Source: Megasphaera elsdenii DSM 20460 | Lineage (GTDB): Bacteria > Bacillota > Negativicutes > Veillonellales > Megasphaeraceae | Length of the DNA stretch: 32,000 nt | Direction of reading: 5' to 3' | Assembly: GCF_003010495.1 (NCBI RefSeq) | Contig: NZ_CP027570.1 | Coordinates: 270,001-302,000 of the forward strand | Shown here: in pieces, positions 7,244 to 32,000 of the stretch | Layout: each line of letters starts with the position of its first letter | Numbering within the stretch: the first letter of the stretch is position 1 | Made by a program: the position numbers and the translations under genes | Notes under the pieces: model-generated | The model's database searches: none | What the model saw: only the letters and a program-made list of their open reading frames with translations | What the model was told of the DNA's origin: nothing

Positions 7244-7250
7244 GACGGGC

Positions 7251-8861: not shown

Positions 8862-8870
8862 AGTGTCCCC

Positions 8871-9542
8871 CTATTTCTCGATATCCCGCGATTCATACAA
8901 GCGGTGCAATTCGGCGTCATCGGCTTCCATCAGATGCCGGACGTCGGCTGCGAACTGGCCTTCCTCGATGGCCTGGACGCGCTGTTCCAGATGCTTGCTC
9001 TTCTTGGCGATGTACTTGCCCATGAGGCGCCGCGCCAGGAGGCCGACGGCACCGTGACTGATCTTGGCCGGACAGCTGGCCGCACAGATATTGCAGCAGA
9101 CACAGCGGAAGGATTCCTTGGCACAGCCGGCATAGTCACCGCGCTGGGCCAGGGCGATGTATTTCATGACCTGGATGCCTTGAGGGCAGTTCCGCGTACA
9201 GGCATTGCAATGGATGCAGTTGTAGATTTCCGGATAGAGCTGGCCGACGACGTTGCCGGCAACGGGCAGGTCTTCCATATCGTAATCCCGCTTCTTGATG
9301 GGGAACGATTCCAGGCGGCCGACGCACATGCCGTCTTCGACTTTCGTCTGACAGGCCAGGGCCGAATGGGTCTCCGTCTGGCCCTGCAGGCGGTAGACGA
9401 CGGCACAGGCCCCGCAGAACCCGCTGCGGCAGCCGCAGCCCCGGACGAGGCGGAAGCCGGAATATTCCATGGCCCGCATGATCGTCAGATCTTCAGGGAC
9501 CGAAAATTTCTTGCCTAATAAATAGACCGTTACCATTTTCAT
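8871..9542 (-). CDS. Iron-sulfur subunit (SdhB/FrdB-like; a 2Fe-2S-type N-terminal motif plus two CxxCxxCxxxCP motifs)
   Basis: The start is chosen at MKMVTVYLLGKKF (ATG at 9542), which has an AAGGAG SD. Cys motifs are CGCRSGFCGACAV, CIHCNACTRNCP and CVCCNICAASCP. The gene ends 10 nt before the flavoprotein start. Confidence 0.8.
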   Translation of the reverse strand: MKMVTVYLLGKKFSVPEDLTIMRAMEYSGFRLVRGCGCRSGFCGACAVVYRLQGQTETHSALACQTKVEDGMCVGRLESFPIKKRDYDMEDLPVAGNVVGQLYPEIYNCIHCNACTRNCPQGIQVMKYIALAQRGDYAGCAKESFRCVCCNICAASCPAKISHGAVGLLARRLMGKYIAKKSKHLEQRVQAIEEGQFAADVRHLMEADDAELHRLYESRDIEK

Positions 9543-9573
9543 GATGAGAAAACTCCTTTGTGAATGAATGGCA

Positions 9574-9603
9574 AAAGGGCTTGTCGTACACGACAAGCCC
9601 TTT
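9574..9603 (-). terminator. GC-rich hairpin, the likely pyc terminator or attenuator
   Basis: The hairpin is AAAGGGCTTGTCG-TACA-CGACAAGCCCTTT, a 13-bp stem. On the minus strand it is followed by TTTTG. It lies about 90 nt after the pyc stop and only 31 nt upstream of the FeS-subunit start codon. Confidence 0.6.
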
Positions 9604-9619
9604 TTAAGTTTGACGTTGA

Positions 9620-9686
9620 AAGTATGATGTTTGATGTAGAAGGGGCTAATTTAAAACCATCACTTCAAACATCAAACATCATACTT
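9620..9686. repeat. 18-bp perfect inverted repeat built from 7-nt-periodic units
   Basis: Positions 9620-9637 (AAGTATGATGTTTGATGT) are the exact reverse complement of 9669-9686, with a 31-nt loop. Both arms are heptad-periodic. The right arm reads CTTCAAA|CATCAAA|CATCATA|CTTCAAA and abuts the pyc stop (9693-9695). Confidence 0.8.
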
Positions 9687-9692
9687 CAAACA

Positions 9693-12600
9693 TTATTCCA
9701 GTACTTCCAACAGGCAGTCGCCACTGATGATGGCCTGGCCTTTGGTAGCATAGATTTCGCCGACTGTACCGTCGATAGGAGACGTAATGGTCGTTTCCAT
9801 CTTCATGGCTTCCGTAACGACTAACGGTTCGCCTTTCTTGACTTTCTGGCCCTTGGTGACCAGGACTTTGACGACAGAGCCGGACAAGGTAGCCCCGATA
9901 TCGCCGGCTTTGTCCGGATCGGCCTTGCGGCGGGTGACGGTCTTCATGTCGACGCTCTTGTCCTGGACCTGGATTTCACGTTCGGCGCCGTTGAACATGA
10001 AGGTAATGGTGCGGACGCCGCTGTCATCAGGATCACTGATGTTGATGAGGGTGATGATGAGGTCCTTCCCTTCTTCGATTTCAACGTGGACTTCTTCGTT
10101 TTTCTTCATGCCGAAGAAGAACGTCGGCGTATCGAGAACGCTGACATCGCCGTATTTCTTGACCGTTTCGTTGAAGTCCTTGAAGACTTTCGGATACTGG
10201 CAGTAGGCGTTGATGTCTTCATCTTCGTGCTTATAGCCGGCATCGGTCAGTTTCTGGCGGATCGCTTCGAAATCGACAGGAGGCAGGCTCTTGCCCGGGC
10301 GTTCCGTCAAGGGTTTCTTGCCTTTCAGGACGATCTTCTGGAGTTTTTCCGGGAAGCCCTGGTAAGGAATACCGATGCGGCCTTCGAAAAATTCGACGAC
10401 GGACTGCGGGAAGTCGAGGACGTCGCCTTTATCGTAAACGTCCTGTTCGGTCAGGTTGTTCTGAACCATGAACAAGGCCATGTCGCCGACGACTTTCGAC
10501 GACGGCGTAACTTTGATGATGTCGCCGAACATCATGCTGACCGTGTGGTACATCTTCTTGATTTCATTCCAGCGGTCACCGAGGCCGACGGCTTTCGCCT
10601 GCTGGCGCAGGTTGGAGAACTGGCCGCCCGGCATTTCATGCTGGTAGACTTCCGTATTCGGATAAGCATCGGCTTTGTCGACGCCTTTGTAGTACGGACG
10701 GACCGTAGCCCAGTAACGGGATAGTTCTTCCATGGCATCGACGTCGAGGTCCGGCTGGCGGTCCTTGCCGCTCAAGGCGTAGTACAAGGTGCTCATGCTC
10801 GGCTGGCTCGTGCCGCCGGCAAAAGCGGAATAAGCGACGTCGACGATGTCGACACCGGCGTCGATAGCGCGGTTATACGTGTAGATGGCATTGCCCGAAC
10901 CGTCATGGGTATGGAGATGGATTGGCAGGTCGACGGCATCTTTCAAGGCCGATACCAAGCGGTATGCCGCTTCCGGTTTCAAGAGGCCGGCCATATCCTT
11001 GATGGCGATGATGTTGGCGCCGGCGTTCTGCAATTCTTTCGCCATGTTGACGTAGTATTTCAAATCGTATTTATCCCGGGACGGGTCGAGGATATCACCC
11101 GTGTAGCACAGGGCGACTTCGGCCAGTTTGTTGTTTTCCCGGACGGCCTGGATGGTGCCGTACATGTTGTCCAAGCTGTTGAGGCTGTCGAAGACGCGGA
11201 AGACGTCGATGCCGTTCTTAGCCGACAAGTCGATGAAGTTCTTGACGACGTTGTCGGGATAGCTCGTATAGCCGACGGCATTGGCGCCGCGGACGAGCAT
11301 CTGCAAGAGGATGTTCGGCGCTTTCTTGCGCATCTGGCGCAGGCGGACCCAAGGGTCTTCATAGAGGAAGCGATAAGCTACGTCGAAGGTAGCGCCGCCC
11401 CAACATTCATAGGAGAAGAGATTCGGAAGTTTCTTGGAAGCCGTTTCCAGGACGCGGAGCATATCGATGGAACGGACGCGCGTAGCGAACAGGGACTGAT
11501 GGGCGTCGCGCATGGTCGTATCGGTGAAGAAGACCTTCGGCTGTTCCTTGATCCACTGGGAGAATTTTTCCGGTCCCATGGCATCGAATTTCTGTTTCGT
11601 CCCGTCCGGATAAGCGCCTTCGACAGGTGTCGGCAGTTCCAAGGCTTCAAAAGCCGGTTTATCCTGATGGCCGGCGTCGGCATAGCCATTGATGGTCGTA
11701 TCGCCGATATATTTGAGGAGCTTCGTGCCACGGTCCTGGACGACGGGCAGGTTGAACAGTTCCGGATGGTCATCGATGAAGTTGACGTTGTACGTACCAG
11801 CGATAAATTCCGGACTCTTGAGGACGTTGATCAAGAAGCCGATGTTGGTCTTGACGCCGCGGATACGGAATTCCTTGAGGACGCGGAGCATCTTTTGGGC
11901 TGCTTCTTTATGGGTCAGGCCATAAGTCGTCGTCTTGACCAGCAGCGAATCGTAGTACGGCGTGATGATGGCGCCGGTATAGGCATTGCCGCTGTCGAGG
12001 CGGACGCCGAAGCCGCCGCCGCTGCGGTATACCATGATCTTGCCCGAATCAGGCATGAAGTTGTTCATCGGGTCTTCTGTCGTGATACGGCACTGGATGG
12101 CATCGCCCAGGCAGCGGACGTCGTCCTGGGATTTGATGCCGATTTCATCGCTGTCCAGGGCATAGCCTTCAGCGACTTTGATCTGGGTCTGTACGATGTC
12201 GATGCCCGTAATCATTTCCGTGACGGTATGTTCGACCTGTACGCGCGGGTTGACTTCGATGAAGTAAAATTCACCGTCCGGCGTGACCAGAAATTCGACA
12301 GTACCGGCATTGACGTAATGGACGTTCTTCATCAATTTCAAGGCTGCGTTGCAGATCTTCTGGCGCAATTCGACAGGCAGGGCCGAAGCCGGAGCCGTTT
12401 CGACGACTTTCTGGTGACGGCGCTGGATGGAGCAGTCGCGTTCAAAGAGGTGGATGACATTGCCGTGTTCGTCGCCCATGATCTGGACTTCGACGTGTTT
12501 CGGATTGACGATGCATTTTTCCAAATAAATTTCATCGCTGCCAAAAGCCAGTTTGGCTTCCGATTTAGCACGGTCGTAGGCATCGCGGAGATCAGCCATG

Positions 12601-13127
12601 CGGTCGACCATACGCATACCGCGGCCACCGCCGCCGTTGACAGCTTTCAGCATGATCGGGAAGCCGACCTGTTTGGCAAATTTTTCGACTTCTGCATAGT
12701 TCATGACCGGGCCGTCGCTGCCGGGGATGTACTGGATACCGGCCTTCTTCGCCTGGATGCGGGCATTGATCTTATCGCCGAACATGATGAGGTGTTCGAC
12801 TTTAGGACCGATGAAGATAATGCCTTCTTCTTCACAGCGTTTGGCCAGGTCCGCATTTTCAGACAAGAAGCCGTAGCCCGGATGGATGGCATCGACGTCA
12901 TGTTCATGAGCAATGCGGATAATATCTTCAATATCTAAATATGCATCTACCGGTTTTTTGCCTTCACCGACGAGATACGATTCATCTGCACGGAAACGGT
13001 GCAGGGACAGCGAATCTTCTTTGGAATAAATAGCTACGGTACGGATTCCCAGTTCATTACAAGCCCGGAAAACACGAATAGCGATTTCTCCGCGGTTGGC
13101 AACTAAAACCGAACGAATTTTTTTCAT
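9693..13127 (-). CDS. pyc: Pyruvate carboxylase (single-chain, biotin-dependent)
   Basis: The 1144-aa protein has an N-terminal biotin carboxylase/ATP-grasp region (MKKIRSVLVANRGEIAIRVFRAC...), a central carboxyltransferase region and a C-terminal biotinyl domain with the EAMKMET attachment motif. An AGGAGGG SD is present. Confidence 0.97.
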   Translation of the reverse strand: MKKIRSVLVANRGEIAIRVFRACNELGIRTVAIYSKEDSLSLHRFRADESYLVGEGKKPVDAYLDIEDIIRIAHEHDVDAIHPGYGFLSENADLAKRCEEEGIIFIGPKVEHLIMFGDKINARIQAKKAGIQYIPGSDGPVMNYAEVEKFAKQVGFPIMLKAVNGGGGRGMRMVDRMADLRDAYDRAKSEAKLAFGSDEIYLEKCIVNPKHVEVQIMGDEHGNVIHLFERDCSIQRRHQKVVETAPASALPVELRQKICNAALKLMKNVHYVNAGTVEFLVTPDGEFYFIEVNPRVQVEHTVTEMITGIDIVQTQIKVAEGYALDSDEIGIKSQDDVRCLGDAIQCRITTEDPMNNFMPDSGKIMVYRSGGGFGVRLDSGNAYTGAIITPYYDSLLVKTTTYGLTHKEAAQKMLRVLKEFRIRGVKTNIGFLINVLKSPEFIAGTYNVNFIDDHPELFNLPVVQDRGTKLLKYIGDTTINGYADAGHQDKPAFEALELPTPVEGAYPDGTKQKFDAMGPEKFSQWIKEQPKVFFTDTTMRDAHQSLFATRVRSIDMLRVLETASKKLPNLFSYECWGGATFDVAYRFLYEDPWVRLRQMRKKAPNILLQMLVRGANAVGYTSYPDNVVKNFIDLSAKNGIDVFRVFDSLNSLDNMYGTIQAVRENNKLAEVALCYTGDILDPSRDKYDLKYYVNMAKELQNAGANIIAIKDMAGLLKPEAAYRLVSALKDAVDLPIHLHTHDGSGNAIYTYNRAIDAGVDIVDVAYSAFAGGTSQPSMSTLYYALSGKDRQPDLDVDAMEELSRYWATVRPYYKGVDKADAYPNTEVYQHEMPGGQFSNLRQQAKAVGLGDRWNEIKKMYHTVSMMFGDIIKVTPSSKVVGDMALFMVQNNLTEQDVYDKGDVLDFPQSVVEFFEGRIGIPYQGFPEKLQKIVLKGKKPLTERPGKSLPPVDFEAIRQKLTDAGYKHEDEDINAYCQYPKVFKDFNETVKKYGDVSVLDTPTFFFGMKKNEEVHVEIEEGKDLIITLINISDPDDSGVRTITFMFNGAEREIQVQDKSVDMKTVTRRKADPDKAGDIGATLSGSVVKVLVTKGQKVKKGEPLVVTEAMKMETTITSPIDGTVGEIYATKGQAIISGDCLLEVLE

Positions 13128-13210
13128 GAAAATACCCTCCTGCTTAGAAAAATTAAGTCAAGACCGGTAAACGCACAGATGTCCACTCCCATACATTCAC
13201 CGCTTTCTTC

Positions 13211-13238
13211 ATTATAACAAAATAGGAAAACATTACAA
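13211..13238 (-). promoter_or_regulatory. Putative pyc promoter
   Basis: The minus strand reads TTGTAA (13238-13233), a 16-nt spacer, then TATAAT (13216-13211). This implies a leader of about 80 nt. Confidence 0.45.
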
Positions 13239-13297
13239 GGGACGCACCCTGCGGATTTATAAAAATACTGTATACACGTCATGTTTTTCTGGCCTTT

Positions 13298-14011
13298 TCA
13301 GTCCTTCCCGCTGCTTTTCCTTTCTGTCATCCCGATGACGATAATTGTTCCTTCGTACAGTACAATCATTGGGATGGCAATGCACGTCTGGGTGAACATG
13401 TCCGTCGTCGGCGATACGACGCCGGCAAAGATGAAGGCCAGGAGGATGAAGACGCGGCGCTTGGCTTTCAGCATGGCCGCCGTCACCAGCCCCAGGCGGG
13501 ACAGGACCAGGAGGACCAGGGGCAGTTCGAAGCCCAGGGCGAAAGGCAGGAGAAAGGCGATGAAAAACGATAGATACGCCGAGAGAGAGAACATGGGCTG
13601 CAACGACACCGTGGCAAAACCCATGAAGAACTGGATTGCCGCCGGCAGGACCCAGAAAAAGGCAAAGGCCGAACCGCCGTAAAATAAGAGCAGGGCCGAC
13701 GGGATGAACCATAAGGCCGTCGTCACTTCCCCACCGCGCAGAGCCGGCCGCAGGAAGCGCCAGAATTCATAACAATGGATGGGCAGGGTGCCGAGAAAAC
13801 CCGTAAAGGCAGCGACTTCTAAATAAGAAAAAAAGACTTCTGCCGGATTGAGGAAATACAATTTCCCGGCCGGAGCCGAAAGGACGGCGATGATATCTTC
13901 GGCGTATATATAGGAAATAATACTGCCCAGGAGCCAGGCTGCGAAGCAAACGATGAGGCGCCGCCGCAATTCCTCCAGGTGAAAAGTAATAGGAGCTCGT
14001 TCTTCAGACAT
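13298..14011 (-). CDS. tatC: Twin-arginine translocase subunit TatC
   Basis: This is a six-TM protein with a typical TatC N-terminus (FHLEELRRRLI). The start is chosen at MSEERAP (ATG at 14011), which has an AAAGGAA SD. The track ORF starts 7 codons earlier, at 14032. Confidence 0.9.
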   Translation of the reverse strand: MSEERAPITFHLEELRRRLIVCFAAWLLGSIISYIYAEDIIAVLSAPAGKLYFLNPAEVFFSYLEVAAFTGFLGTLPIHCYEFWRFLRPALRGGEVTTALWFIPSALLLFYGGSAFAFFWVLPAAIQFFMGFATVSLQPMFSLSAYLSFFIAFLLPFALGFELPLVLLVLSRLGLVTAAMLKAKRRVFILLAFIFAGVVSPTTDMFTQTCIAIPMIVLYEGTIIVIGMTERKSSGKD

Positions 14012-14033
14012 GGGATTTCCTTTCAGGTGCATA

Positions 14034-14064
14034 AAAGGGCTTGTCGCACGACGACAAGCCCTTT
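14034..14064 (-). terminator. GC-rich hairpin with the same stem sequence as 9574-9603
   Basis: The hairpin is AAAGGGCTTGTCG-CACGA-CGACAAGCCCTTT. On the minus strand it is followed by TTTTAT, and it ends 22 nt upstream of the tatC start codon. Confidence 0.55.
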
Positions 14065-14068
14065 AAAG

Positions 14069-14246
14069 TTGTTAGTGGCTAGCAGTTAGTTGTTAGAGGG
14101 TGGCTTTAAATTTGAAGTTTTTCTCTGCAAACTACAAACTCTGTGCTACAAACTATAAAGTAAACGGGGCCTCGCATGATGGCAAAAACCTTCGTGCGAC
14201 AGCCCCATCTGCTACAAACTACAAACGCTGTACTACAAACTAATTA
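14069..14246. repeat. Composite intergenic repeat region with three heptad-periodic arrays and an internal hairpin
   Basis: On the plus strand, TAG triplets occur at 14073, 14080, 14087 and 14094, an exact period of 7. In the opposite orientation, CTN triplets occur at 14125, 14132, 14139, 14146 and 14153 (CTGCAAA|CTACAAA|CTCTGTG|CTACAAA|CTATAAA). A further set occurs at 14212, 14219, 14226, 14233 and 14240 (CTACAAA|CTACAAA|CGCTGTA|CTACAAA|CTAATTA), and its last unit contains the nitroreductase stop. The last two arrays are about 30-nt direct repeats that flank an imperfect hairpin at 14166-14206. Confidence 0.75.
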
Positions 14247-14747
14247 TACATAATGTACGCGGGACGGATCGTAGCGGTCTTCGCGTGGTTTGTCTTCGGC
14301 TGTGGCCTGGGGATACCCCATGGCTACGATGGCGAAAGGCGTCAGGCCTTTGGGAACGCCGAGGGACCGGCGGACGAGGACTTCACGGGCCTTATACGGG
14401 GCGACGCCGAGCCATACGGCACCAAGGTCGAGGTGGACGGCTTCGAGCAGGATGTTTTCAACTGCTGCGCTGAGGTCGAGATTGACGAAAGCCGGGAAAC
14501 GCATGTTTTCATCGCGGGAACAGACGACGATGGCCAAGGAAGCACCGGCAGCACAGCCAGCATAGGGACTGCAGTGGGATAAGTCCTGGATGACCCGTTT
14601 GTCGCGGACAACGTAAAATTCCCAAGGCTGCTGATTCCCAGCCGAAGGAGCGGCCATACCGGCGCGCAGTAACTGTTCTATCTTTTCATCTTCTACCATG
14701 GTCGGTAAAAATTTACGGATACTCCGTCTGGCAAAGATTTCATTCAT
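14244..14747 (-). CDS. Nitroreductase-family FMN oxidoreductase
   Basis: The 167-aa protein has the N-terminal RRSIRKF motif and the PSAGNQQPW motif typical of the nitroreductase fold. Confidence 0.85.
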   Translation of the reverse strand: MNEIFARRSIRKFLPTMVEDEKIEQLLRAGMAAPSAGNQQPWEFYVVRDKRVIQDLSHCSPYAGCAAGASLAIVVCSRDENMRFPAFVNLDLSAAVENILLEAVHLDLGAVWLGVAPYKAREVLVRRSLGVPKGLTPFAIVAMGYPQATAEDKPREDRYDPSRVHYV

Positions 14748-14784
14748 GTGAATCGACTCCCTCCTATAATCATATGTCTATTCT

Positions 14785-14793
14785 ATTATAACA
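14785..14793 (-). promoter_or_regulatory. Possible extended -10 promoter of the nitroreductase gene
   Basis: The minus strand reads TGTTATAAT (TGnTATAAT) about 40 nt upstream of the ATG at 14747. There is no convincing -35 box. Confidence 0.35.
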
Positions 14794-14842
14794 TATATAG
14801 ATAGAAAGAAAAAGAAGTTGGATAGGCTTCCATCACGAATGA

Positions 14843-14875
14843 TAAAAAAAAGCTTGTCGCGTATGCGACAAGCCT
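14843..14875 (-). terminator. Rho-independent terminator after tRNA-Leu
   Basis: A 9-bp stem, GCTTGTCGC/GCGACAAGC, has a 4-nt loop (14852-14873) and is followed on the minus strand by eight T. The stem shares the CTTGTCG/CGACAAG core with the hairpins at 9574 and 14034. Confidence 0.8.
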
Positions 14876-14882: not shown

Positions 14883-14966
14883 TGGTGCCGAGGGAGGGAC
14901 TTGAACCCTCACGGTGTTACCCGCCTGATTTTGAGTCAGGTGCGTCTGCCATTCCGCCACCCCGGC
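14883..14966 (-). tRNA. tRNA-Leu (anticodon CAA), type II with a long variable arm and an encoded CCA
   Basis: The reverse complement reads GCCGGGGTGGCGGAATGGCAGACGCACCTGACTCAAAATCAGGCGGGTAACACCGTGAGGGTTCAAGTCCCTCCCTCGGCACCA (84 nt). It has a 7-bp acceptor stem with one G-U pair, an anticodon stem CCTGA/TCAGG with loop CTCAAAA, and a T arm GAGGG-TTCAAGT-CCCTC. Confidence 0.93.
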
Positions 14967-15066: not shown

Positions 15067-16452
15067 TTAGTGGCCAGCCGGGACTTTTTCTTCCGAATCT
15101 TCGGCTACGACCATTTCTTCTTCCTTCAGATGAGCGAAGTATTTCTTCGTTTCGGCTACGACGACGCCCGAGAGGCCGATGAGGGCGATGAGGTTCGGGA
15201 TAGCCATGAGGCCGTTTACGATATCAGCCAGGACCCAGATGACGTCGAGTTTGATGAAAGCGCCGCAGGCGACGAGGGCGATGAAGATGATGCGGTACGG
15301 CAGGATGCCTTTGACGCCGACGAGGTATTGGACACAGCGTTCACCGTAATAGTTCCAGCCGAGGATGGTCGTAAAAGCGAACAAGGTCAGGCCGACGCAG
15401 AGGATAATGCTGCCGTAAGCCGGGAACGCCATGTTGAAAGCAGCATTAGTCAGGGCTGCGCCATTGACGTCGCCCATCCAGGCACCGCTGACGACGAGGA
15501 CCAGGCCCGTCAAGGTGCAGATGATGATGGTATCGATGAAAGTACCGGTCATGGAAATGAGGCCCTGTTCAGCCGGCCATTTCGTCTTGGCAGCAGCGGC
15601 TACGATAGGCGCACTACCCAAGCCCGATTCATTGGAGAAGACGCCGCGGGCGACGCCGTTACGCATAGCGACTAAGACCGTAGCGCCGAGGAAGCCGCCA
15701 GCTGCGGCAGTCGGCGTGAAGGCGCTGACGATGATCTGTTCGACAGCGGCCGGGATCTGATCGGCAAAGATGACCAGGAAAGCGACGGTAGAAACGACAT
15801 AGATGACAGCCATGGCCGGGACGATCTTGGAAGCGACGCGGGCGATGGACTGGAGGCCGCCGATGGTGATGGCAGCGACGAGGATGGTCAAGACGATAGC
15901 CGTGTATTCGACGGGGATGCTCGTCGTCAGGCGCGTGATTTCAACGATGGAGTTGACCTGAGCGAACGTCCCGATGCCGAAGAAGGCGACGAGGACGCCG
16001 AAGAAGGCGAACAAGAAAGCCAAGGGCTTGTATTTCTTGCCCAAGCCGTTTTCGATGTAGTACATCGGGCCGCCGGCGATGTCGCCGTTCTTATCGACCG
16101 TACGGTATTTGACAGCCAGACAGCCTTCGGCGTATTTCGTGGCCATGCCGACAAAAGCAGCCATCCACATCCAGAAGATAGCCCCAGGACCACCAGCATG
16201 GACAGCCGTAGCGACGCCGACGATGTTGCCCGTGCCGACCGTAGCAGCCAAAGCCGTGCACAAAGCCTTGAAGCTGTCTACGTCGCCTTCACCCTGGTTC
16301 TTAGCCGTGAAGATGAGCTTCAGCGCTCTCGGCAGACGGAAGACTTGCAGCAAATGGAGACGGACAGTCAGCATCAGGCCGGTTCCGATGAGCAGGACCA
16401 GCAACGGCGGCCCCCAGACAAAACTATCAATGGCATTCAACGTTTCTAACAT
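15067..16452 (-). CDS. Alanine/glycine:cation symporter (AGCS family)
   Basis: The 461-aa polytopic membrane protein has an N-terminus (MLETLNAIDSFVWGPPLLVLLIGTG) and overall pattern typical of sodium:alanine symporter family proteins. A GGGGAG SD is present, and a glycine riboswitch lies upstream. Confidence 0.92.
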   Translation of the reverse strand: MLETLNAIDSFVWGPPLLVLLIGTGLMLTVRLHLLQVFRLPRALKLIFTAKNQGEGDVDSFKALCTALAATVGTGNIVGVATAVHAGGPGAIFWMWMAAFVGMATKYAEGCLAVKYRTVDKNGDIAGGPMYYIENGLGKKYKPLAFLFAFFGVLVAFFGIGTFAQVNSIVEITRLTTSIPVEYTAIVLTILVAAITIGGLQSIARVASKIVPAMAVIYVVSTVAFLVIFADQIPAAVEQIIVSAFTPTAAAGGFLGATVLVAMRNGVARGVFSNESGLGSAPIVAAAAKTKWPAEQGLISMTGTFIDTIIICTLTGLVLVVSGAWMGDVNGAALTNAAFNMAFPAYGSIILCVGLTLFAFTTILGWNYYGERCVQYLVGVKGILPYRIIFIALVACGAFIKLDVIWVLADIVNGLMAIPNLIALIGLSGVVVAETKKYFAHLKEEEMVVAEDSEEKVPAGH

Positions 16453-16531: not shown

Positions 16532-16569
16532 CTAAGGGTCGCAGAAAAAAAGAAAGGTCATTCTGCCAG

Positions 16570-16722
16570 CTCTGTCCTTTTGCCTGAGAGATTAGGAATC
16601 ACTTCCTTGCACCTTCGGCGCCCAAACGGGACTCTCCAGAGTCGTGTCCACACACGGTCCCACCCCCTGAGGGGCACCTGAGAGTTTGACTCCGTCGGTA
16701 GGCCAGGCCTTCTCCCGTGTGT
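16570..16722 (-). promoter_or_regulatory. Tandem glycine riboswitch (two aptamers)
   Basis: Minus-strand aptamer 1 (16722-16650) reads ACACACGG-GAGAAGGCCTGGCCTACCGACGGAGTCAAACTCTCAGGTGCC...GGGA-CCGTGTGT. Aptamer 2 (16641-16570) reads CTCTGGAGAGTCCCGTTTGGGCGCCGAAGGTGCAAGGAAGTGATTCCTAATCTCTCAGGCAAAAGGACAGAG. Both carry the conserved GGAGA...ACCGAAGG.GCAA...CTCAGG...GGAC core with closing P1 helices. Confidence 0.87.
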
Positions 16723-25396: not shown

Positions 25397-26476
25397 CTAC
25401 ATGCATATGTATCTTGCCAGGCGGGCCGCCCGGTCTTCGATTCCTTCGTTCTGGAGGATGCTCTTGGGGGCATTGGCCGTTTCGATGAGGGCGAAGTACG
25501 GCGGCAGGATGAAGTTCTTGTTGCAGTTCATGGCGTCGATGACCTGTTCGGCTACGATGTCGCCGCCGCTGTAGCCGGAAACGACCAGGGCATAGACTTC
25601 CTTTCTGGCAAAGGCCGCTTCTTCCTTGCGGAACAAGGCCGTCAGCCTGTTGAAGAAAGCCATAATGTTGGCGCTGACGGCGTCGTTATAATTCGGACAG
25701 ACAAGGACGATGACATCCCCTTTGCGGACAGCGGGATAGACTTTTTCCACCATGACGCCGCCGTAGAAACAGTCCCCTTTTTCACCGAAATGGAGGCACG
25801 TTTCATAGCTGCAGCCCCGGCAGTCGACGACAGTCCCATTGCGCAGGGAAATTTCCGTGACCCTGGCCTTCCCCTGTAAATGGCGCTGCACCATTTCCCA
25901 GAGGAGGAGCGTGTTCGACGTGCGGCGGCTGCTGGCGTGGAGGACGACGACGTCCTTAGTCTTCCCGGTCCCGTCGGGCCGGGTGAAAGCCAGCAGTTTA
26001 CTGACCAGGCGGCCGGCACTGACGGCGTAGGCTTCCTCATTGGAAAGGCCCTGGATCTGAGCCTGGGTATTAAAATTATAAAGGGATCCCGTAGCCTCGA
26101 CAAGGGGCTTGCCGGGAAAGACACAGCCGGCCTGATTGGCAAAGAAAATCAGCTCCCGGCCTATTTTTTTTGTAAAAAACTCCCCCTGCCCGTCGACGAG
26201 GACGGCACCGCGGCAGCCGGCCAGACAATGGCGGTGGCGGACCAGACAGGATACGAGGTGGACATAGGACAGGCTGACGCCGGCCTTGGGCAGGGCGACG
26301 GCGAAGAGGACAGCTGTCCCCTCTTTTTCGGCCCGCGTCCGGACGCACCAGCGCAAGAAGGCCTTTTCCCGTTCGATGACCTGATACGTCCGCCCTTCCA
26401 GGGCCCGGCTGAGAACGCGGCCGATGCGCTCCGTATGACCGGCTTCGTCCCAGCCGACCTTCACGACTAACAGCAT
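25397..26476 (-). CDS. Two-domain flavodoxin-fold protein; the C-terminal half resembles NADPH-dependent FMN reductase or iron-sulfur flavoprotein
   Basis: The protein is 359 aa. Residues from about 175 to the end carry the FMN-reductase-type pattern VVLHASSRRTSNT...VIVLVCPNYNDAVSANIMAFFNRL. They also carry a Cys motif, C219-x2-C-x4-C-x8-C236. Residues 1-170 look like a second beta-alpha-beta domain with no recognised motif. A GGAAGGGGG SD lies upstream, 15 nt after the upstream gene's stop. Confidence 0.65.
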   Translation of the reverse strand: MLLVVKVGWDEAGHTERIGRVLSRALEGRTYQVIEREKAFLRWCVRTRAEKEGTAVLFAVALPKAGVSLSYVHLVSCLVRHRHCLAGCRGAVLVDGQGEFFTKKIGRELIFFANQAGCVFPGKPLVEATGSLYNFNTQAQIQGLSNEEAYAVSAGRLVSKLLAFTRPDGTGKTKDVVVLHASSRRTSNTLLLWEMVQRHLQGKARVTEISLRNGTVVDCRGCSYETCLHFGEKGDCFYGGVMVEKVYPAVRKGDVIVLVCPNYNDAVSANIMAFFNRLTALFRKEEAAFARKEVYALVVSGYSGGDIVAEQVIDAMNCNKNFILPPYFALIETANAPKSILQNEGIEDRAARLARYICM

Positions 26477-26491: not shown

Positions 26492-27487
26492 CTAGACGAG
26501 ACGGCTCAACGCCGTATAGGCCCGCTTCCAGCGTTCGTACAGGGCCGGGCAGGCACAGACGTCTTCATAAGTCACCTGGCCGCCGGCGACGCGGTTCTTG
26601 ACGCCGAAAAAGGCTCCCTTCGATGCATCGCCGAGATAGACTGAGCCATAATGCCACTGGCCCCGAAGGGTCAGGATGATCGACAGGGCCGCTGACGACA
26701 GGGCCGGCGCGATATAGGGCTTATAGCCCAGGTCGCGGACGGCGATGTTGGCATGGACGACGAGGTCCGTCAGCTCCCGCGACAAGGCGTCGTCGTAGTC
26801 TTCCATGCTGTCGGCGATGACCAGGTCCGCCCCATGGGGGCCAAAGGCCCGGCCTTCCGTCAGGTAGTGGGCAAAACGCGGATTTTTCTTGGCGTAATAG
26901 CAGGCCCGGGCATGCATGACGCCCAGGCCATAGCCCTGGATCTGGGCCGGATGGAGGCCCGATTCCGTCAAGAAGGCCCGGCACAAGGGGTCGACCGGAT
27001 CCGATACGATACAGACCTGGCCGCCGAAGCCCGCCTGGCGGGCCAGGCCGGCATAGTGGGCGATGAGGCTGCGGTTGGCTTCGAGCTGGGCCATGCGTAC
27101 ATCGCCGCCGGCTCCGACAGGCGGCACGCCCTTGCTGGCACAGAAGATAAAGACGTCGCAGTCGAAGACGTCTTCTTCCCCGACGACCGTCACGGCTGGC
27201 AGGACCGGGTCCGGACAGCCTTCCTGGCCGGCAAAGGGATAGCGAATCTGGTTCATTTCCATTTCCAGACGGGCCAGGTTCTTCTCATTGATGTCGCACA
27301 TGCCGACGGAAGCGATGACGTCCTGCCCGGCCAGGAGCAGTCCGATGAGCATGGTCGTCCCCACATCGCCTAAGGCGACGATGTGGACGCGGGCTTTCCG
27401 GGCCAGCTGCGGCGCCCTGTCGAGAGGCATGGCAGACGCCCCGATGTCAGCGGGTAAATCGTGGATCCATTTATTCAAAGTCTTCAT
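26492..27487 (-). CDS. L-lactate/malate dehydrogenase-family 2-hydroxyacid dehydrogenase (divergent)
   Basis: The Rossmann start VHIVALGDVGTTM is present. The strings GLGVMHARA (LDH GT.LD.AR position, Arg kept) and FGPHGAD (GEHGDS position, catalytic His kept) are also present. The start is chosen at MKTLNKWIHDL (ATG at 27487), which overlaps the end of the giant gene by 17 nt. The track ORF starts 25 codons earlier. Confidence 0.72.
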   Translation of the reverse strand: MKTLNKWIHDLPADIGASAMPLDRAPQLARKARVHIVALGDVGTTMLIGLLLAGQDVIASVGMCDINEKNLARLEMEMNQIRYPFAGQEGCPDPVLPAVTVVGEEDVFDCDVFIFCASKGVPPVGAGGDVRMAQLEANRSLIAHYAGLARQAGFGGQVCIVSDPVDPLCRAFLTESGLHPAQIQGYGLGVMHARACYYAKKNPRFAHYLTEGRAFGPHGADLVIADSMEDYDDALSRELTDLVVHANIAVRDLGYKPYIAPALSSAALSIILTLRGQWHYGSVYLGDASKGAFFGVKNRVAGGQVTYEDVCACPALYERWKRAYTALSRLV

Positions 27488-30400
27488 CTCCTTCTCCCCA
27501 GCGCAGGCGGATGAGCCGTTCGATATCGTTCTTGATGAACCGCGTCGGGTCCATGTTCTCATCGAACTTAACGCCGACGTCGATATCGGGGATGCGCGGG
27601 TACGTAATAACTTCGCCGAGCCGCTTCAGGGTCAGGCGCTTTTCAAACGTTTCCTGATAGACGTCCTGCAAGGTTTCCATGATGGACGCGGCGTTCTGCA
27701 GGCACGTCAGGGAATAGAGGTAATCGGCTTCGCTCTTCCCCTTGCCGATGAAGGCCGGCTTGACATAGGGAAGGACCAGGTTGATCGACGGGTTGCGGCC
27801 GTAACCGCTGTAGTTATGGGCATTGTCCAGGCTGTCGCCGCCGATGAAAGGATAGCAGTCCCTTTCATTGAGCCAGACTTCCAGGCTGGGCAGGAAATAA
27901 GCGCTTTCGGCACGGATGTTCTTTTCTTCCATCATATCCATGGCCTGACCGGTCATGACGCCGACCAGGACTTCTTTGATCTCTACGTCGTTCTGTTCCA
28001 GATAAGGCGTCAGCATGCGCATGCGATGGCCCTTGTGCAGGAGGTCGTCAATGAGGATGACCGGCCGGTTGAAGGACTTGATGGTCTTGACCTGGTTGTC
28101 GACGGACGAATAATGCTGACACTCTGCAATGGTAAAGCCCTTGACGGTGCGGTTGAAATACTTGTCGATATGGAGGCCCTTAGTGACCGTATTGGGCACG
28201 AGGACATCGCTCAGGGCCTTGCCGAAGGGGACCGACATGTACGGCCCGCGGCGCTTCTTCTTATCTTCGACGATGGAGACACCGTTGATTTCAGCCACCT
28301 TCTTGATGATCTTGTTGTAAAAGGCACTCATGTTGAACGACAAGATGAGCTGGCCCGGATAAATGTGGTTCATGACCGACAGTAAGTTGTTGTGAGCCTC
28401 ATAGATAGCCCGGCGGACGCGGGGATTCTTATTGAAGGGGTTCTTGATGGTCGTCTCGACGTCGCGGAAAATGACGATAGGCGACTTCATATTGACAGCA
28501 TAAATCGGCTGTTCCCCAGACGGAGCAATGTTGACGAAGCCCTGGCGGCGCAAAGCGTCGATGACGGTCGCTTCATAGCCGGCCGGATCGACGGGATGGT
28601 AGACGGCATAAGCGAAGTCGCGGGCAATGAGTTCCGTCAGGATTTCCGTAATGATGATCTGGCTGACGTTGGCAATGCCGGCCATATCATCGGCATAGAG
28701 GAAGCCGATGCAGGCAATGCCGCCGTCGGCCGCGTCGCGGATGTGGGAGGCAATGGCCGAGTCGTGAAATTCGCGCAGCAAATCGCGGGAGCCGACGCGA
28801 TGGACGGCGGCATAGGCGATCATCTTCCGTTCCTGACTGGCGTCGTCGATGTACAAGGTCCAGACGTAATCCTTTTCGACATAGCTGTCGACGGTTTCCG
28901 TATGGTAGCCCTTGTCCCAGAGGGCACTGCAAATGGGCCACAAGCTTTCGGCGCCGCGCGGCTTGAAGGAACCGATGCCGATTTCCCGGGCTTCCAGGAC
29001 GTGCTTATAGGCCGGTTCGCGCAGATAAAGGTTATTGTCGTAAATGAAATTCTGGGCCACGGCGTCGATGAGGTTGGAAATATCCCGGTTGAGGTCGATG
29101 TTCTCGCGTATCTTCGTCGAACTGATGTCTTCGTAGAATTTGTCCAGAGTCAGGCGGATGACCTTGCCCTGGATGCCGTAAGTCTTTTCCGGCTGGTCCG
29201 TTTCCGGGTTTTCCCGGGTCTCCCGGGCAAAGGCGATGTGGTTCACCGTATGGATCGAATCGGGAGTCGGCACGGCCCGGTAGGCCGAGGCATTCTCGAT
29301 GACGTCCGTCCCGACGGCGATGTACAGGTCCCGGCCGGCAAAGATTTCCTTGAGCTTCTTGATGTCCGCCGGATTGGCGATGTTGATGGGGATATCATCG
29401 GGGAAAGGATACATATTCTCTTCATCGGCGACGGACATATTCATGATCTTGCGGCGCATGAGCCGCGGCTGGGTATGCTTGGACCAGGAAAATTCATCGA
29501 GGGCCAGGTAAATATCGAAGCCCAGGTCGCGTATCTTGCAGGCCACGGCCTTATGGCCCAGGCTGAAGGGGTCGAAGGTCCCCGGATAGAAGCAGGGCTT
29601 GCGGCCCTTTTCGAAGGCAAAGGAACCGCAGGCAAATTCATGCTGGCTGATATAGCGGTAGATGTGGTTGAGCACGGCCGAATTGCTGTAGAAATCCAGG
29701 TTCTCTTCACTATTTTCATCGAGGAGGACCAGGAGCTTCTTATAGCAATGGCTGAACAAGAAATCCTTCCGCTCTTCCGGCATGATCGGGCTGTGGAAGA
29801 TGAATTTCCCCAAATCGCGGAAGGCGTCGCGGCTCAGCTCCTTATTGTAATGGGCGTAGGCCTTGATCATGATGTACAACAGCTGGCGCTGACGTTTGTC
29901 GTTGACTGCCGGGTCCTGGGAAAATTCCTTGGCAAATTCATCGAAATGTTCCAAAATGATGCCGACCGTCTGGACCATGGACGAAGCCAGGGGGATATTG
30001 ACATTGAGTATCTGCCCTTCGATGGTCTTGACAAATTCGTCAAATTCCCGCGGCGGCAGCTTGAGGATCATCTTGCCCAGAAACTCCGGCACGTACTTGG
30101 ATATCTGCGGGTCGCCGATTTCCAGGCCGTTGAACAGTTCCACCGTCAATTCATTCCGCTGGGCATAGGTCATGGTGGAAGCGATCTTGAGCAGGCTGTC
30201 GCCGGCGGCGCGGCGGACGAAAATGGATTCGCTGACCTTGAGGAGGTTGGTCAGATGCGTCCCCAGGTGCATGACGCTGCCGGCGTCGCTCTGGCCGTCG
30301 ATATAGCGCAGCATGAGTTCCAGGTTGGCCACCTTGACGACCCAATGGGTCCCCATCTTGAGGTCGACCAGGAAGAGATTGCCTTCCCGTTCAAAAAAGG

Positions 30401-32000
30401 CATCCCGCCCTTCGGGCAGGTCCATGACCGTCAGCAGGTCTTTATAATACAAATCGTCGGAATAGTCGGCGAAGACGTGGCGGGCACAGTTGAGGGCAGC
30501 GACGCGCAGGTTGAAGGAATCGCTTTTCCTCGCCGTTTCGACGAAAGGTGCCGCTGCCGCCATGAATCCGTCATCCAGATAAATCCGGTCCATATCGGCC
30601 AGGACCTTCAAGAGGATGATATACTCTTCTTCACTGTAGTTGCGCCGCTCGTAGTACGGCCCCATGATGGCCGTATAGCGGCAGCACTGGGACGGGGCGC
30701 AGCGCTGCAGAACGGCTGAGATGAATGTACTCAGGCAATAGCCGATCCACAATTTATGCTGTTCTGTGAAGCGGATGTCCGGACAGATGATGCGGTCCAG
30801 GTAGGTCGTAAACAAGGACAGGTTGGTCACGGATTTCGCCGGCAGGGAGACGCCTTCGGGCAGTTCCTTCGTATACGTATCGTTGAAGTTGGCAATGATG
30901 CGCCCCATGAGAGCGGCTGCCTGCAGGCGGATATCCCCTTCGCGGTGGGACAAGAGCTCGTAGAGGAACTTCAAGGTCATGAGTTTCTGATGTTCCGTCA
31001 TGTACGTCGAATATTCCTCGAAAATGCCGATATACGTGCGGACATTCTTCCACAGCCGTTCGCTTCGGGCCGCTTCGATGAGGTTGCCGAAATCGCTTTC
31101 ATCGCGGAAGATGCTCATGAGGCGGATATTGTGGTCGATGGCGGCATATTTGAGCTGGTCAATGACGTCGTTGCCTTCGAGGAGGACCTTTTCCCGATGG
31201 ACGGGCTGCGGCGGGTCGGCCGGCTGCCAGGCAAAGTCCGCCGGCAGTTCCGTGACGACGCCGTGTTCTTCCATAAAGGCTTCAAAATCCGCCAGTTTGG
31301 CATAGACTTTCTGGTAACGCTGGCGCTTGGCTTCATCGACATTATCCAGTTTGCCTAAGATGACATCGAAGGCTTCGGCCAGGGAATAGAAATGGACGAT
31401 TTCCTTGCCCTTATCATTGCGGCTGCTCTTGACGCGGAAGTCGGCATAGATGAGGAGCAGCGATTCGACGGACAAGTTTTCCAGCTCCAGGTCCCATACC
31501 GAATGGTTCGCCGCGATGTGACCGATAGCCGGCAGGCCCAGGCGGCGGCAGCACATGCCCGTATAATAATAATGTAAATAAGGGACGCGCTTTTCTTCAT
31601 TCTTCTTGCAGCCATATTTGCCGATATCGTGGCAGGCGGCGGCGCCGGAAATGAGGGCCACGTCGACGGGGATGCCGTTCCGGGCCAGCTGGCGGGCCGC
31701 ATAGACGGCGACGTAATGGACGCCGCCGACATGACCGAGCGTATTGAACGGCGTAATATCGATGCCGATGCGCATAAATTCATAAATATAATCATCAGTG
31801 GCCAGCATCCGCAGGCGGAGGTATTCCTTGATGTAGCCTTTACGGGCGATTTCTTCCGCTGGAATGAGTGGCATGTCCTTTTTCGGATCAAAAGGCAATA
31901 CGTTCCGTTCATAGTGATAGAGGCCGCGAAGGAGCTGCATAAAAATGAGGCAGCCCTGGCGATAGATATCCCCTTGGGCCCCGCGGCCTACAGCCGCTTC
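27471..32000 (-). CDS. Giant multidomain protein of at least 1489 aa: HD phosphohydrolase, HEAT-like helical repeats, NadD-type nucleotidyltransferase, possible GNAT-like region, type I phosphoribosyltransferase
   Basis: A single uninterrupted ORF. The reading frame stays open from the first ATG (31940) to the window edge (EAAVGRGAQGDIYRQGCLIF precedes the M), and there is no SD before 31940, so the true N-terminus may lie outside the window. Domain motifs are listed in the three sub-features and in the findings. Confidence 0.8.
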   Translation of the reverse strand, partial: EAAVGRGAQGDIYRQGCLIFMQLLRGLYHYERNVLPFDPKKDMPLIPAEEIARKGYIKEYLRLRMLATDDYIYEFMRIGIDITPFNTLGHVGGVHYVAVYAARQLARNGIPVDVALISGAAACHDIGKYGCKKNEEKRVPYLHYYYTGMCCRRLGLPAIGHIAANHSVWDLELENLSVESLLLIYADFRVKSSRNDKGKEIVHFYSLAEAFDVILGKLDNVDEAKRQRYQKVYAKLADFEAFMEEHGVVTELPADFAWQPADPPQPVHREKVLLEGNDVIDQLKYAAIDHNIRLMSIFRDESDFGNLIEAARSERLWKNVRTYIGIFEEYSTYMTEHQKLMTLKFLYELLSHREGDIRLQAAALMGRIIANFNDTYTKELPEGVSLPAKSVTNLSLFTTYLDRIICPDIRFTEQHKLWIGYCLSTFISAVLQRCAPSQCCRYTAIMGPYYERRNYSEEEYIILLKVLADMDRIYLDDGFMAAAAPFVETARKSDSFNLRVAALNCARHVFADYSDDLYYKDLLTVMDLPEGRDAFFEREGNLFLVDLKMGTHWVVKVANLELMLRYIDGQSDAGSVMHLGTHLTNLLKVSESIFVRRAAGDSLLKIASTMTYAQRNELTVELFNGLEIGDPQISKYVPEFLGKMILKLPPREFDEFVKTIEGQILNVNIPLASSMVQTVGIILEHFDEFAKEFSQDPAVNDKRQRQLLYIMIKAYAHYNKELSRDAFRDLGKFIFHSPIMPEERKDFLFSHCYKKLLVLLDENSEENLDFYSNSAVLNHIYRYISQHEFACGSFAFEKGRKPCFYPGTFDPFSLGHKAVACKIRDLGFDIYLALDEFSWSKHTQPRLMRRKIMNMSVADEENMYPFPDDIPINIANPADIKKLKEIFAGRDLYIAVGTDVIENASAYRAVPTPDSIHTVNHIAFARETRENPETDQPEKTYGIQGKVIRLTLDKFYEDISSTKIRENIDLNRDISNLIDAVAQNFIYDNNLYLREPAYKHVLEAREIGIGSFKPRGAESLWPICSALWDKGYHTETVDSYVEKDYVWTLYIDDASQERKMIAYAAVHRVGSRDLLREFHDSAIASHIRDAADGGIACIGFLYADDMAGIANVSQIIITEILTELIARDFAYAVYHPVDPAGYEATVIDALRRQGFVNIAPSGEQPIYAVNMKSPIVIFRDVETTIKNPFNKNPRVRRAIYEAHNNLLSVMNHIYPGQLILSFNMSAFYNKIIKKVAEINGVSIVEDKKKRRGPYMSVPFGKALSDVLVPNTVTKGLHIDKYFNRTVKGFTIAECQHYSSVDNQVKTIKSFNRPVILIDDLLHKGHRMRMLTPYLEQNDVEIKEVLVGVMTGQAMDMMEEKNIRAESAYFLPSLEVWLNERDCYPFIGGDSLDNAHNYSGYGRNPSINLVLPYVKPAFIGKGKSEADYLYSLTCLQNAASIMETLQDVYQETFEKRLTLKRLGEVITYPRIPDIDVGVKFDENMDPTRFIKNDIERLIRLRWGEGDEDFE
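27741..28238 (-). other. Type I phosphoribosyltransferase-fold region of the giant protein (residues about 1235-1400)
   Basis: A PRPP-loop-like string, NRPVILIDDLLHKGHRMRML, is followed by VEIKEVLVGVMTG. This parallels the PurF-type pattern (VVLVDDSIVRGTT...EVHVRISSP), but the loop after DD (LLHKGHR) is atypical. Confidence 0.6.
29100..29590 (-). other. Cytidylyltransferase-fold (NadD/NMNAT-like) nucleotidyltransferase region of the giant protein (residues about 783-947)
   Basis: CFYPGTFDPFSLGH (residues 783-796) is the GxFxPxHxGH motif with the first His replaced by Ser. ISSTKIR (residues 939-945) matches the ISSTxIR motif of nicotinate/nicotinamide-nucleotide adenylyltransferases. Confidence 0.7.
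31416..31763 (-). other. HD-domain region of the giant protein (residues about 60-175)
   Basis: The H...HD...H...D pattern is present: GHVGGVHYVAVYAARQL, AACHDIGKYG (HD at residues 104-105), HIAANHSVWD and LLIYADFRV. Confidence 0.7.

Follow-up and report, generated by a model that had tools for sequence, protein, structure and literature searches.

The DNA analyzed here is a 32,000-nucleotide stretch of the Megasphaera elsdenii DSM 20460 genome (contig NZ_CP027570.1, positions 270,001 to 302,000; hereafter the window), one end of which carries most of a minus-strand gene for a giant protein of about 1,615 residues. It is nearly certain that this protein consists of an N-terminal helical region with an HD domain, a HEAT solenoid, a nucleotidyltransferase (NTase) paralogous to NadD, a GNAT fold, and a phosphoribosyltransferase (PRT)-like domain, and that its gene is the first of a conserved three-gene operon. 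As a tentative reading, to which we assign a probability of roughly 0.3, the giant protein and the products of genes 2 and 3 would form a multi-enzyme on a scaffold, dedicated to making or recycling an NAD-like compound, an adenylylated phosphoribosyl species. The coordinates of all features are collected in Table 1.

Translation of the minus-strand open reading frame (ORF) confirmed that it runs stop-free to the window edge, as the initial annotation of this DNA had stated, with 1,509 sense codons and its only stop, TAA, at positions 27473-27471. The closest relative in a search of clustered proteins was the 1,615-residue P0001 (99% identity); the window ORF begins at its residue 106, leaving 105 codons outside the window. 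This comparison places the start codon outside the window, about 315 nt past its edge. The first ATG inside the window is evidently internal, and the missing ribosome-binding site in front of that ATG carries no meaning. The length reported initially, at least 1,489 codons, has to be replaced by about 1,615 codons as in P0001. The true start was defined by P0001 together with the near-identical metagenome contig L001, on which the gene occupies positions 10001-14848, 86 nt downstream of a PPDK-regulator (Kinase-PPPase) gene. All sequence strings quoted initially were found in the translation (IRLQAAALMGRI, LRVAALNCARHV, VRRAAGDSLLKI, GTFDPFSLGH, ISSTKIR, and VILIDDLLHKGHR...VLVGVMTG), and adding 125 to the initial residue numbers gives the full-length numbering used below.

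The protein belongs to a large family. More than 7,700 relatives at 90%-identity clustering were present among 5.8 billion clustered proteins, and a HMMER scan of 1.84 billion representatives yielded 781 clusters (50% identity) at E ≤ 1e-3, 257 of them at E ≤ 1e-30, with nearly all members 1,550-1,650 residues long. The more than 7,700 clusters and the 257 at E ≤ 1e-30 have the architecture in common. The window protein is 96% identical to one from a metagenome-assembled genome (MAG) of an uncultured human-gut Megasphaera and 79% identical to WP_048514290.1 of Megasphaera cerevisiae. The ORF is, on this evidence, a real, full-length, and widespread gene, far beyond chance. On an 878-kb contig of a JGI assembly of Megasphaera cerevisiae, the gene is called as two pieces, P0392 and P0393 (453 and 1,210 residues); this may reflect a frameshift or a sequencing error, or may have arisen in gene calling.

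AlphaFold2 models of both halves were built on an alignment of 77 sequences, and the same 77 relatives underlie the motif counts given below. The predicted local distance difference test score (pLDDT) and the predicted template modeling score (pTM) were 93.1 and 0.91 for residues 1-904 and 92.4 and 0.91 for the C-terminal 730 residues. Foldseek searches with these two models were dominated by NadD and HEAT proteins, and the HD, GNAT, and PRT folds were tested through BFVD, sub-profiles, and hhalign. Searched against the PDB by sequence, the whole protein gave a marginal NadD match alone, and the whole-family profile retrieved PPAT, NMNAT, and helical-repeat proteins and no PRT. Pfam families were scanned in 30 relatives, with matches counted at E ≤ 0.1. 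The five folds named in the initial annotation were all upheld, with unequal strength: the NTase and HEAT calls are strong, the HD call is good, the GNAT fold comes without its cofactor motif, and the PRT-like call is weak but concordant.

The NTase, initially noticed through GTFDPFSLGH and ISSTKIR, has the cytidylyltransferase fold. Pfam CTP_transf_like matched the window protein above its gathering score (E = 1.5e-8), the best 50 Foldseek matches in the PDB were all NadD or NMNAT (E 6e-9, TM 0.75-0.80), and hhalign aligned the domain with the canonical NadD of Acetoanaerobium noterae over its full length (182 columns, probability 98.5%, E = 1.8e-15). A likeness to E. coli CoaD was confined to the first 44 residues, which fit CoaD better than NadD (hhalign E = 2.7e-7), pairing TNGH with SLGH and SPSKK with SWSKH, and coaD models matched 21 of the 30 relatives (best 3.5e-9). 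The catalytic signature is evidently intact and conserved, since F30 is kept in 77, D31 in 75, S/T34 in 77, and H37 in 70 of the 77 relatives, the I and R of ISSTxIR in 73 and 74, and the ring-stacking Tyr in 76. The serine replacing the first His in SLGH had been taken as a possible sign of degeneracy, but this position, the first of S/T-x-G/S-H, is Ser in 58 relatives and Thr in the other 19, and it aligns with the Thr of TNGH in E. coli CoaD. SLGH thus reads as a conserved CoaD-type variant (T-x-G-H) and not as decay.

The assignment of this domain as a nicotinate or nicotinamide mononucleotide (NaMN/NMN) adenylyltransferase held only in part. Its fold and ATP motifs agree with that activity, whereas the NaMN-phosphate motif of NadD, PPHK ('QPPHK'), has no counterpart in the giant protein, where DEFSWSKxTQP is found instead. 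The domain also falls far below all NadD equivalog cut-offs (TIGR00482, 31.5 against 112.45 bits; NF000840, 29.8 against 150). In the one genome examined for coexistence with a canonical NadD, that of Acetoanaerobium noterae, a 2.63-Mb replicon carries both the giant gene with genes 2 and 3 (locus L088) and a canonical obg-nadD-yqeK-rsfS operon. The NadD of that operon reaches 240.5 bits (cut-off 150), and its YqeK also passes the equivalog cut-off. Because this organism has a separate canonical nadD-yqeK, the giant protein is not simply a NaMN/NMN adenylyltransferase and, judged from the sequences, is not the housekeeping NadD or YqeK. PLSDB lists the replicon itself, NZ_CP154629.1 ('plasmid pTPELB2', L088/L090, 2.63 Mb), among plasmids; since it carries obg-nadD-yqeK-rsfS and the giant-gene module, this label looks mistaken and the replicon chromosomal.

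The C-terminal domain, for which a type I PRTase-like fold had been proposed, was supported by several weak lines that concur. Pfam Pribosyltran matched the window protein at E = 0.086 (12.6 bits against a gathering score of 26.3) and five of the 30 relatives (best 0.004), and NCBIfam Apt matched it at 0.0011. Seven of eight PDB matches of the C-terminal profile were PRT-fold proteins, all on the phosphoribosyl pyrophosphate (PRPP)-loop region (best HPRT, 0.019); hhalign placed DDLLATGGT of E. coli Apt on DDLLHKGHR (E = 0.0016); and BFVD held a PRT-domain match at E = 2.8e-3. A PurF-like relationship was tried and set aside as weak (hhalign E = 0.058 over 30 columns). The hydrophobic strand with its Asp-Asp pair (V-I-L-V/I-D-D; the two Asp in 74 and 70 of the 77 relatives) aligns with VLVVDD of E. 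coli Apt. The 5'-phosphate loop x-x-T/S-G-x-T is not present, and a conserved L-L-H-K-G-x-R stands in its place (H in 55, K in 52, G in 65, and R in 71 relatives). The PRPP loop is therefore non-canonical, as had been noted, but its conservation among the 77 relatives points to adaptation of the site more than to the degeneracy suggested initially. The motifs CVPFG, VPNTVTK, YPFIGGD, and PSINxILPY are conserved too, and few other parts of the protein are conserved as well as the PRT-like domain.

Pfam HD scored below its gathering score in the window protein (E = 0.012, 16.3 against 22 bits) and was found in 17 of the 30 relatives (best 3.1e-6). The putative ligands H195, H229-D230, H248, H271, D275, and D292 (P0001 numbering) are at least 90% conserved among the 77 relatives, and the residues originally listed as a metal-phosphohydrolase signature land on such columns (H195, H229-D230, H271, and D292, to which H248 and D275 are added here), so the metal-ligand signature is present. 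A profile of the HD region alone gave three PDB matches, all of them HD proteins, of which 1xx7 (E = 0.0033) aligns the H and the HD. A weak resemblance to the HD part of the DVU_1551 family was seen in 20 of the 30 relatives (best 5.4e-8), and also to TIGR00295. A YqeK-type HD was rejected, as hhalign found no similarity to clostridial YqeK. In three of 23 sampled divergent members (P0194, P0202, and P0221, all full-length), HF or HI replaces the HD dyad, and the hydrolase is probably inactive in some lineages.

The helical-repeat strings noted initially belong to a HEAT-type solenoid of stacked helical hairpins, as supported by AlphaFold2, Foldseek, and Pfam. Residues 382-896 are all-helical at pLDDT >90, their PDB matches in Foldseek were the PP2A A subunit, TOG arrays, CAND1, and importins (E from 1.7e-4), and Pfam HEAT was found in 10 of the 30 relatives. 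Sequence conservation in the solenoid is low apart from a patch around the invariant H687 that also contains N690, S695, R701, A704, G705, E726, P743, G747, and E760; this patch could be a partner- or ligand-binding site. The N-terminal region ahead of the HD domain is likewise all-helical in the model (pLDDT mostly >90) and poorly conserved.

The loose GNAT resemblance described initially (residues about 1025-1140 in that numbering) proved real at the level of the fold, but it is accompanied by neither an acyl-CoA motif nor a Pfam match. The order of elements in the AlphaFold2 model, b-a-a-b-b-b-a-b-a-b, fits GNAT, and BFVD returned many GNAT acetyltransferases (E 1e-4 to 4e-3, probability 1.0, TM 0.5-0.66). 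None of the 30 relatives matched a Pfam GNAT family, and the columns of the acyl-CoA pyrophosphate loop, Q/R-x-x-G-x-G/A, are unconserved across the 77 relatives. The module as a whole is poorly conserved and is mostly missing from P0227. This protein is one of five short variants of about 1,065-1,100 residues (with P0231, P0255, P0259, and P0269) that keep the HEAT, NTase, and PRT-like domains but have no HD domain and little of the GNAT fold. The retained trio appears to be the functional core of the giant protein, and since the short variants keep both the transferase and the PRT-like domain while dropping HD and GNAT, these two domains may be argued to work together.

The two downstream genes, with which the giant gene had been proposed to form an operon, are real and tightly spaced: the giant gene stop lies 40 nt from gene 2, and gene 2 lies 15 nt from gene 3, which is preceded by the strong ribosome-binding site GGAAGGGGG. 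Genes 2 and 3 were found directly downstream and co-directional in 63 of the 70 loci with enough downstream sequence, spanning Negativicutes, Oscillospiraceae, Lachnospiraceae, Anaerovoracaceae, and Atribacterota MAGs. At the remaining loci (L026, L043, L050, L051, L053, L066, and L070), unrelated or opposite-strand genes are found instead. No further conserved neighbor recurred in more than eight loci. In the window, recG lies downstream of gene 3 across a 448-nt gap, a linkage not seen in other taxa. At four Negativicutes loci (L007, L008, L011, and L017), a terminator-like hairpin with a T-tract, belonging to the preceding gene, comes to within about 15 nt of the start codon of the giant gene, and no obvious room for a promoter or leader is left there.

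Gene 2 encodes a dehydrogenase that matched L-lactate dehydrogenases (LDHs) in a phmmer search of the PDB (3pqd, 8.4e-5) and was also aligned to 4q3n. Conserved positions in 67 orthologues include the Rossmann GDVG, the NAD-binding Asp that follows strand 2, and the counterparts of R109, R171, and the catalytic H195. An Asp takes the place of N140, and D168 has been lost, with M found there in the alignment to the LDH structures. The protein is far under the LDH and malate dehydrogenase (MDH) equivalog cut-offs (TIGR01771, 28.8 against 303.55 bits). Gene 3 encodes an N-terminal domain of about 175 residues without an assigned family, followed by a C-terminal flavodoxin-like FMN_red domain (Pfam E = 9e-19, 68 bits against a gathering score of 24), and it is labelled 'flavodoxin family / WrbA' in databases. 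Its residues Cys219, 222, 227, and 236 are invariant in 18 relatives and at least 90% conserved in 67 orthologues, about 25 residues upstream of a conserved CPNYND (residues 260-265). This spacing pattern suggests an Fe-S cluster as in iron-sulfur flavoproteins. Neither sequence nor profile searches of the PDB gave a usable relative of gene 3.

When one genome per GTDB species was scanned, 198 relatives of the giant protein were confirmed, and neighborhoods were taken from the best 80 of these 198. Among those 80, the Negativicutes carriers were Megasphaera, Acidaminococcus, and Colibacter; the Clostridia carriers were Anaerovoracaceae/Mogibacterium/Emergencia/Hornefia, Oscillospiraceae (Oscillibacter and Dysosmobacter), Lachnospiraceae (Anaerotignum, Tyzzerella, and Clostridium fessum), Peptococcaceae, Sedimentibacter, Alkaliphilus, and Geosporobacter; and two Atribacterota MAGs were also present.

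Table 1. Features of the giant gene, its operon, and the remainder of the 32,000-nt window (residues of the giant protein in full-length numbering; residues of gene 3 in its own numbering).
Feature	Window positions	Strand	Residues	Motifs	Basis
Giant gene, 3' 93% plus stop	27471..32000	minus	106-1615 of about 1,615		P0001 and locus L001
End of N-terminal helical region	31746..32000	minus	about 106-190		AlphaFold2 and conservation map
Predicted HD metal-dependent phosphohydrolase domain	31266..31748	minus	about 190-350		Pfam, PDB profile, ligand conservation
HEAT/ARM-type alpha-solenoid, ~515 residues	29628..31172	minus	382-896		AlphaFold2, Foldseek, Pfam
Conserved solenoid patch	about 29940-30260	minus	about 649-760		conservation
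Cytidylyltransferase-fold NTase, NadD paralogue	29034..29600	minus	about 905-1095	YPGTFDPFSLGH, DEFSWSK, GTDVIENASAY, ISSTKIR	Pfam, Foldseek, hhalign
GNAT-fold module	28464..28982	minus	about 1112-1284		AlphaFold2, BFVD Foldseek
Type-I-PRT-like domain with helical extension	27474..28460	minus	about 1286-1615	CVPFG, VPNTVTK, VILIDDLLHKGHR, YPFIGGD, PSINxILPY	Pfam, NCBIfam, PDB profile, hhalign, BFVD
Gene 2, divergent LDH/MDH-superfamily NAD-type dehydrogenase, 312 aa	26492..27430	minus			PDB phmmer, residue conservation
Gene 3, 359-aa flavoprotein	25397..26476	minus			Pfam FMN_red
Gene 3 C-x2-C-x4-C-x8-C motif	25715-25822	minus	219-254	DCRGCSYETCLHFGEKGDCFYGG	conservation
Glycine riboswitch aptamer	16562-16649	minus			Rfam RF00504, 68.3 bits, E = 9e-12
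Sodium:alanine symporter ORF	15067-16452	minus			
tRNA gene	14886-14966	minus			Rfam RF00005, 58.3 bits
Ordinary housekeeping region	531-13127				
Pyruvate carboxylase	9693-13127				
FAD_binding_2 flavoprotein with 2Fe-2S partner	7251-9596				
Opp-type peptide ABC transporter	531-5938				

In the reading that we tentatively favor, the HEAT solenoid would serve as a platform on which the three proteins join in one scaffolded machine. The PRT-like domain would couple an acceptor, a base or something similar, to phosphoribose, and the NadD-like domain would move AMP from ATP to the resulting phosphate. The HD domain could then cleave a bond, either phosphoester or phosphoanhydride, to allow turnover, editing, or release, and the dehydrogenase and flavoprotein would carry out redox chemistry with either the acceptor moiety or the completed compound as substrate. 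The product would be an NAD-like dinucleotide rather than ordinary cellular NAD or nicotinate adenine dinucleotide (NaAD). The conserved alteration of both phosphate motifs, PPHK to SWSK in the NTase and TGxT to HKGxR in the PRT-like domain, would fit a shared non-standard intermediate. The proposed relay from base to mononucleotide to dinucleotide is plausible and would agree with the short variants, which keep HEAT, NTase, and PRT-like domains without HD and GNAT.

Several observations weigh against a biosynthetic multi-enzyme of this kind. The PRT assignment is below every curated threshold and the canonical 5'-phosphate loop is gone, and the domain might bind a ligand without catalysis, like other regulators with a PRT fold; moreover, known nicotinate and nicotinamide PRTs are type II and not type I. 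In its N-terminal half, the NTase resembles CoaD, as would be expected if the phosphate acceptor were not a nucleotide, and a HEAT solenoid of ~500 residues is usual in protein-binding scaffolds and less so in enzymes acting on small molecules. The hydrolase step would not be universal, because the HD dyad is gone in the 3/23 divergent members. Genomic context adds no metabolite clue: no Rfam element was found upstream of the operon in the window or six loci, and the 5' leader of the giant gene is too short in many loci to hold one. A NiaR-like regulator (HTH_11 + 3H) lies 1-5 kb downstream of the module at two Clostridia loci, L003 (18207-20803, adjoining nadC and nadB) and L013 (11382-11888), and was not found near it in the remaining loci (2 of about 80 positive); its proximity is probably a coincidence.

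The solenoid and the paired transferase and hydrolase could also belong to a regulatory or macromolecule-directed machine, a reading that we consider unlikely. The target docked by HEAT would be a protein or an RNA, perhaps what genes 2 and 3 encode, on which the NadD-like domain would write a nucleotidyl group and the HD domain erase it in the style of GlnD, with the GNAT-like and PRT-like modules sensing acyl-CoA-like and PRPP- or nucleotide-like signals, respectively. The pairing of a transferase with an opposing HD hydrolase on one chain does recall GlnD, the solenoid is closest to the protein-binding PP2A A subunit, CAND1, and importins, and its patch contains an invariant His. The GNAT module without a catalytic cofactor loop and the non-canonical PRT-like loop would also be compatible with sensing. 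However, no cytidylyltransferase-fold enzyme is known to nucleotidylate proteins, the PRT-like domain is so well conserved, with several invariant motifs, that it exceeds the usual need of a simple sensor, and the short variants lose the presumed eraser HD while retaining the PRT-like domain.

The CoaD-like start of the NTase leads to a further reading, coenzyme A (CoA)- or phosphopantetheine-type chemistry, which appears decidedly unlikely. Here the transferase would adenylylate a 4'-phosphopantetheine-like phosphate, as CoaD does, the GNAT fold directly following it would hold pantetheine or CoA, and the PRT-like domain would add a phosphoribosyl group to give a compound like 2'-(5''-phosphoribosyl)-3'-dephospho-CoA, while a 2-hydroxyacid-type dehydrogenase and the flavoprotein would supply or tailor the acid part. 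The alignment of the first 44 residues with E. coli CoaD, the coaD model matches in 21 of 30 relatives, and the 2-hydroxyacid dehydrogenase catalytic set retained by gene 2 agree with this. Over its full length, however, the domain is much nearer to NadD (E = 1.8e-15, with NadD or NMNAT in all of the top 50 Foldseek matches) and keeps the NadD ring-stacking aromatic, the GNAT pyrophosphate-binding loop is unconserved, and CitG, CitX, and ACP genes were not found nearby in the survey of conserved neighbors.

Two other explanations are very improbable. Databases name the giant protein "phosphohydrolase," "nicotinate-nucleotide adenylyltransferase," or "hypothetical protein," and its homology to NadD is real, but taking it for the organism's own NadD, a generic phosphohydrolase, or both, with the other domains as decoration, conflicts with NTase scores well under the NadD equivalog cut-offs, the missing PPHK, the canonical nadD-yqeK operon in one genome that has the module, and an HD domain without YqeK similarity, and it leaves the strict three-gene conservation unexplained. 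HD, NTase, PRT, and GNAT domains recur in nucleotide-centered conflict systems, which would allow a conflict or defense system built on nucleotide-modifying domains. Against this, PADLOC gave no match for the giant protein or the products of genes 2 and 3, no phage homologues of the giant protein were found, and the sole 'plasmid' match was the 2.6-Mb replicon carrying obg-nadD-yqeK. The module also occurs in varied housekeeping contexts across whole families, its neighbors show no mobile-element or variable-island signature, and it is evidently neither mobile nor a known defense system. An assembly chimera, which had been named as grounds for refutation, or a fused pseudogene, for which nothing speaks except the unusual length, has a negligible probability given that the same 1,550-1,650-residue architecture recurs across hundreds of independent genomes (isolates among them) and metagenomes and that AlphaFold2 predicts one compact arrangement (pTM 0.91 per half).

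A characterized relative, a solved structure, or full-text literature on this architecture was not found, in agreement with the earlier statement that it has no characterized counterpart. The modules all come from known superfamilies, and sequence databases already contain the family, where its names are uninformative or misleading; what lacks a characterized counterpart, as far as the searches could tell, is the distinctive architecture, the strict three-gene operon, and the conserved non-canonical active-site variants. A bolder version of the multi-enzyme reading, which we regard as unlikely, is that the module makes, and perhaps uses, a dinucleotide that contains adenine, has not been described before, and would serve as a cofactor or signal in strictly anaerobic Firmicutes. 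It would then be a HEAT-scaffolded metabolon in which the phosphate sites of the PRT-like domain and the NadD paralogue are co-adapted and the LDH-like protein and the putative Fe-S flavoprotein are dedicated redox partners. The NadD and phosphohydrolase labels are misleading for NAD-pathway reconstruction in microbiomes; the carriers are abundant gut and sediment anaerobes that include common human-gut genera. A six-module protein with catalytic motifs intact in at least two enzyme domains and with two obligate redox partners is a tractable target for nucleotide and cofactor chemistry, and it is a rare bacterial instance of a long HEAT solenoid fused to enzymes.

The remainder of the window was annotated as well. 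The glycine riboswitch aptamer is located directly upstream of the sodium:alanine symporter ORF, and the tRNA gene lies between the symporter gene and a 167-aa ORF. The ordinary housekeeping region also contains an MFS transporter.

Compared with known systems, the giant protein shares with NadD/NMNAT, cytidylyltransferase-fold enzymes of the HUP class, the same full-length fold, the ATP-binding motifs GxFDPxxxGH and ISSTxIR, and an aromatic residue at the ring-stacking position, whereas it has S/T for the first His of HxGH and SWSK for PPHK, is embedded in a 1,615-residue chain, and coexists with canonical NadD in at least one genome. With CoaD/PPAT, it shares the N-terminal 44 residues, including YPGTFDP-x-(T/S)-x-GH and an S-x-S-K phosphate motif, but this likeness is confined to the first quarter of the NTase, and the rest, including the C-terminal helical part, is NadD-like. 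The nadD-yqeK operon, NadD-YqeK fusions (NCBIfam PRK07152), and DVU_1551-family proteins likewise combine a nucleotidyltransferase with an HD phosphohydrolase. The giant protein differs from these in its N-terminal HD and in the 515-residue solenoid between HD and NTase, and the transferase part of DVU_1551 is of a different, MobA-like fold class. CitC (GNAT-like and cytidylyltransferase-like), NadR, and NadM-Nudix also carry a cytidylyltransferase-fold enzyme and another module on one chain, but their domain order and partners differ and they are without HEAT, HD, and PRT modules; Pfam Citrate_ly_lig, Nudix, and kinase families had no match in the window protein or the 30 relatives. Type I PRTs (Apt, Hpt, PyrE, and Prs) and PRT-fold regulators (PurR and PyrR) have the same hydrophobic strand and Asp-Asp at the PRPP loop. 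In the giant protein, their T-G-x-T loop is changed to a conserved H-K-G-x-R, and the domain is about 330 residues long, with the extra conserved motifs VPNTVTK, YPFIGGD, and PSINxILPY and a helical tail. Finally, the solenoid is built of stacked helical hairpins like the eukaryotic-type HEAT scaffolds (PP2A A subunit, TOG, CAND1, and importins), a likeness that is structural only, with about 10-12% identity and low TM; unlike those scaffolds, it is part of a bacterial protein and is covalently flanked by enzymes.

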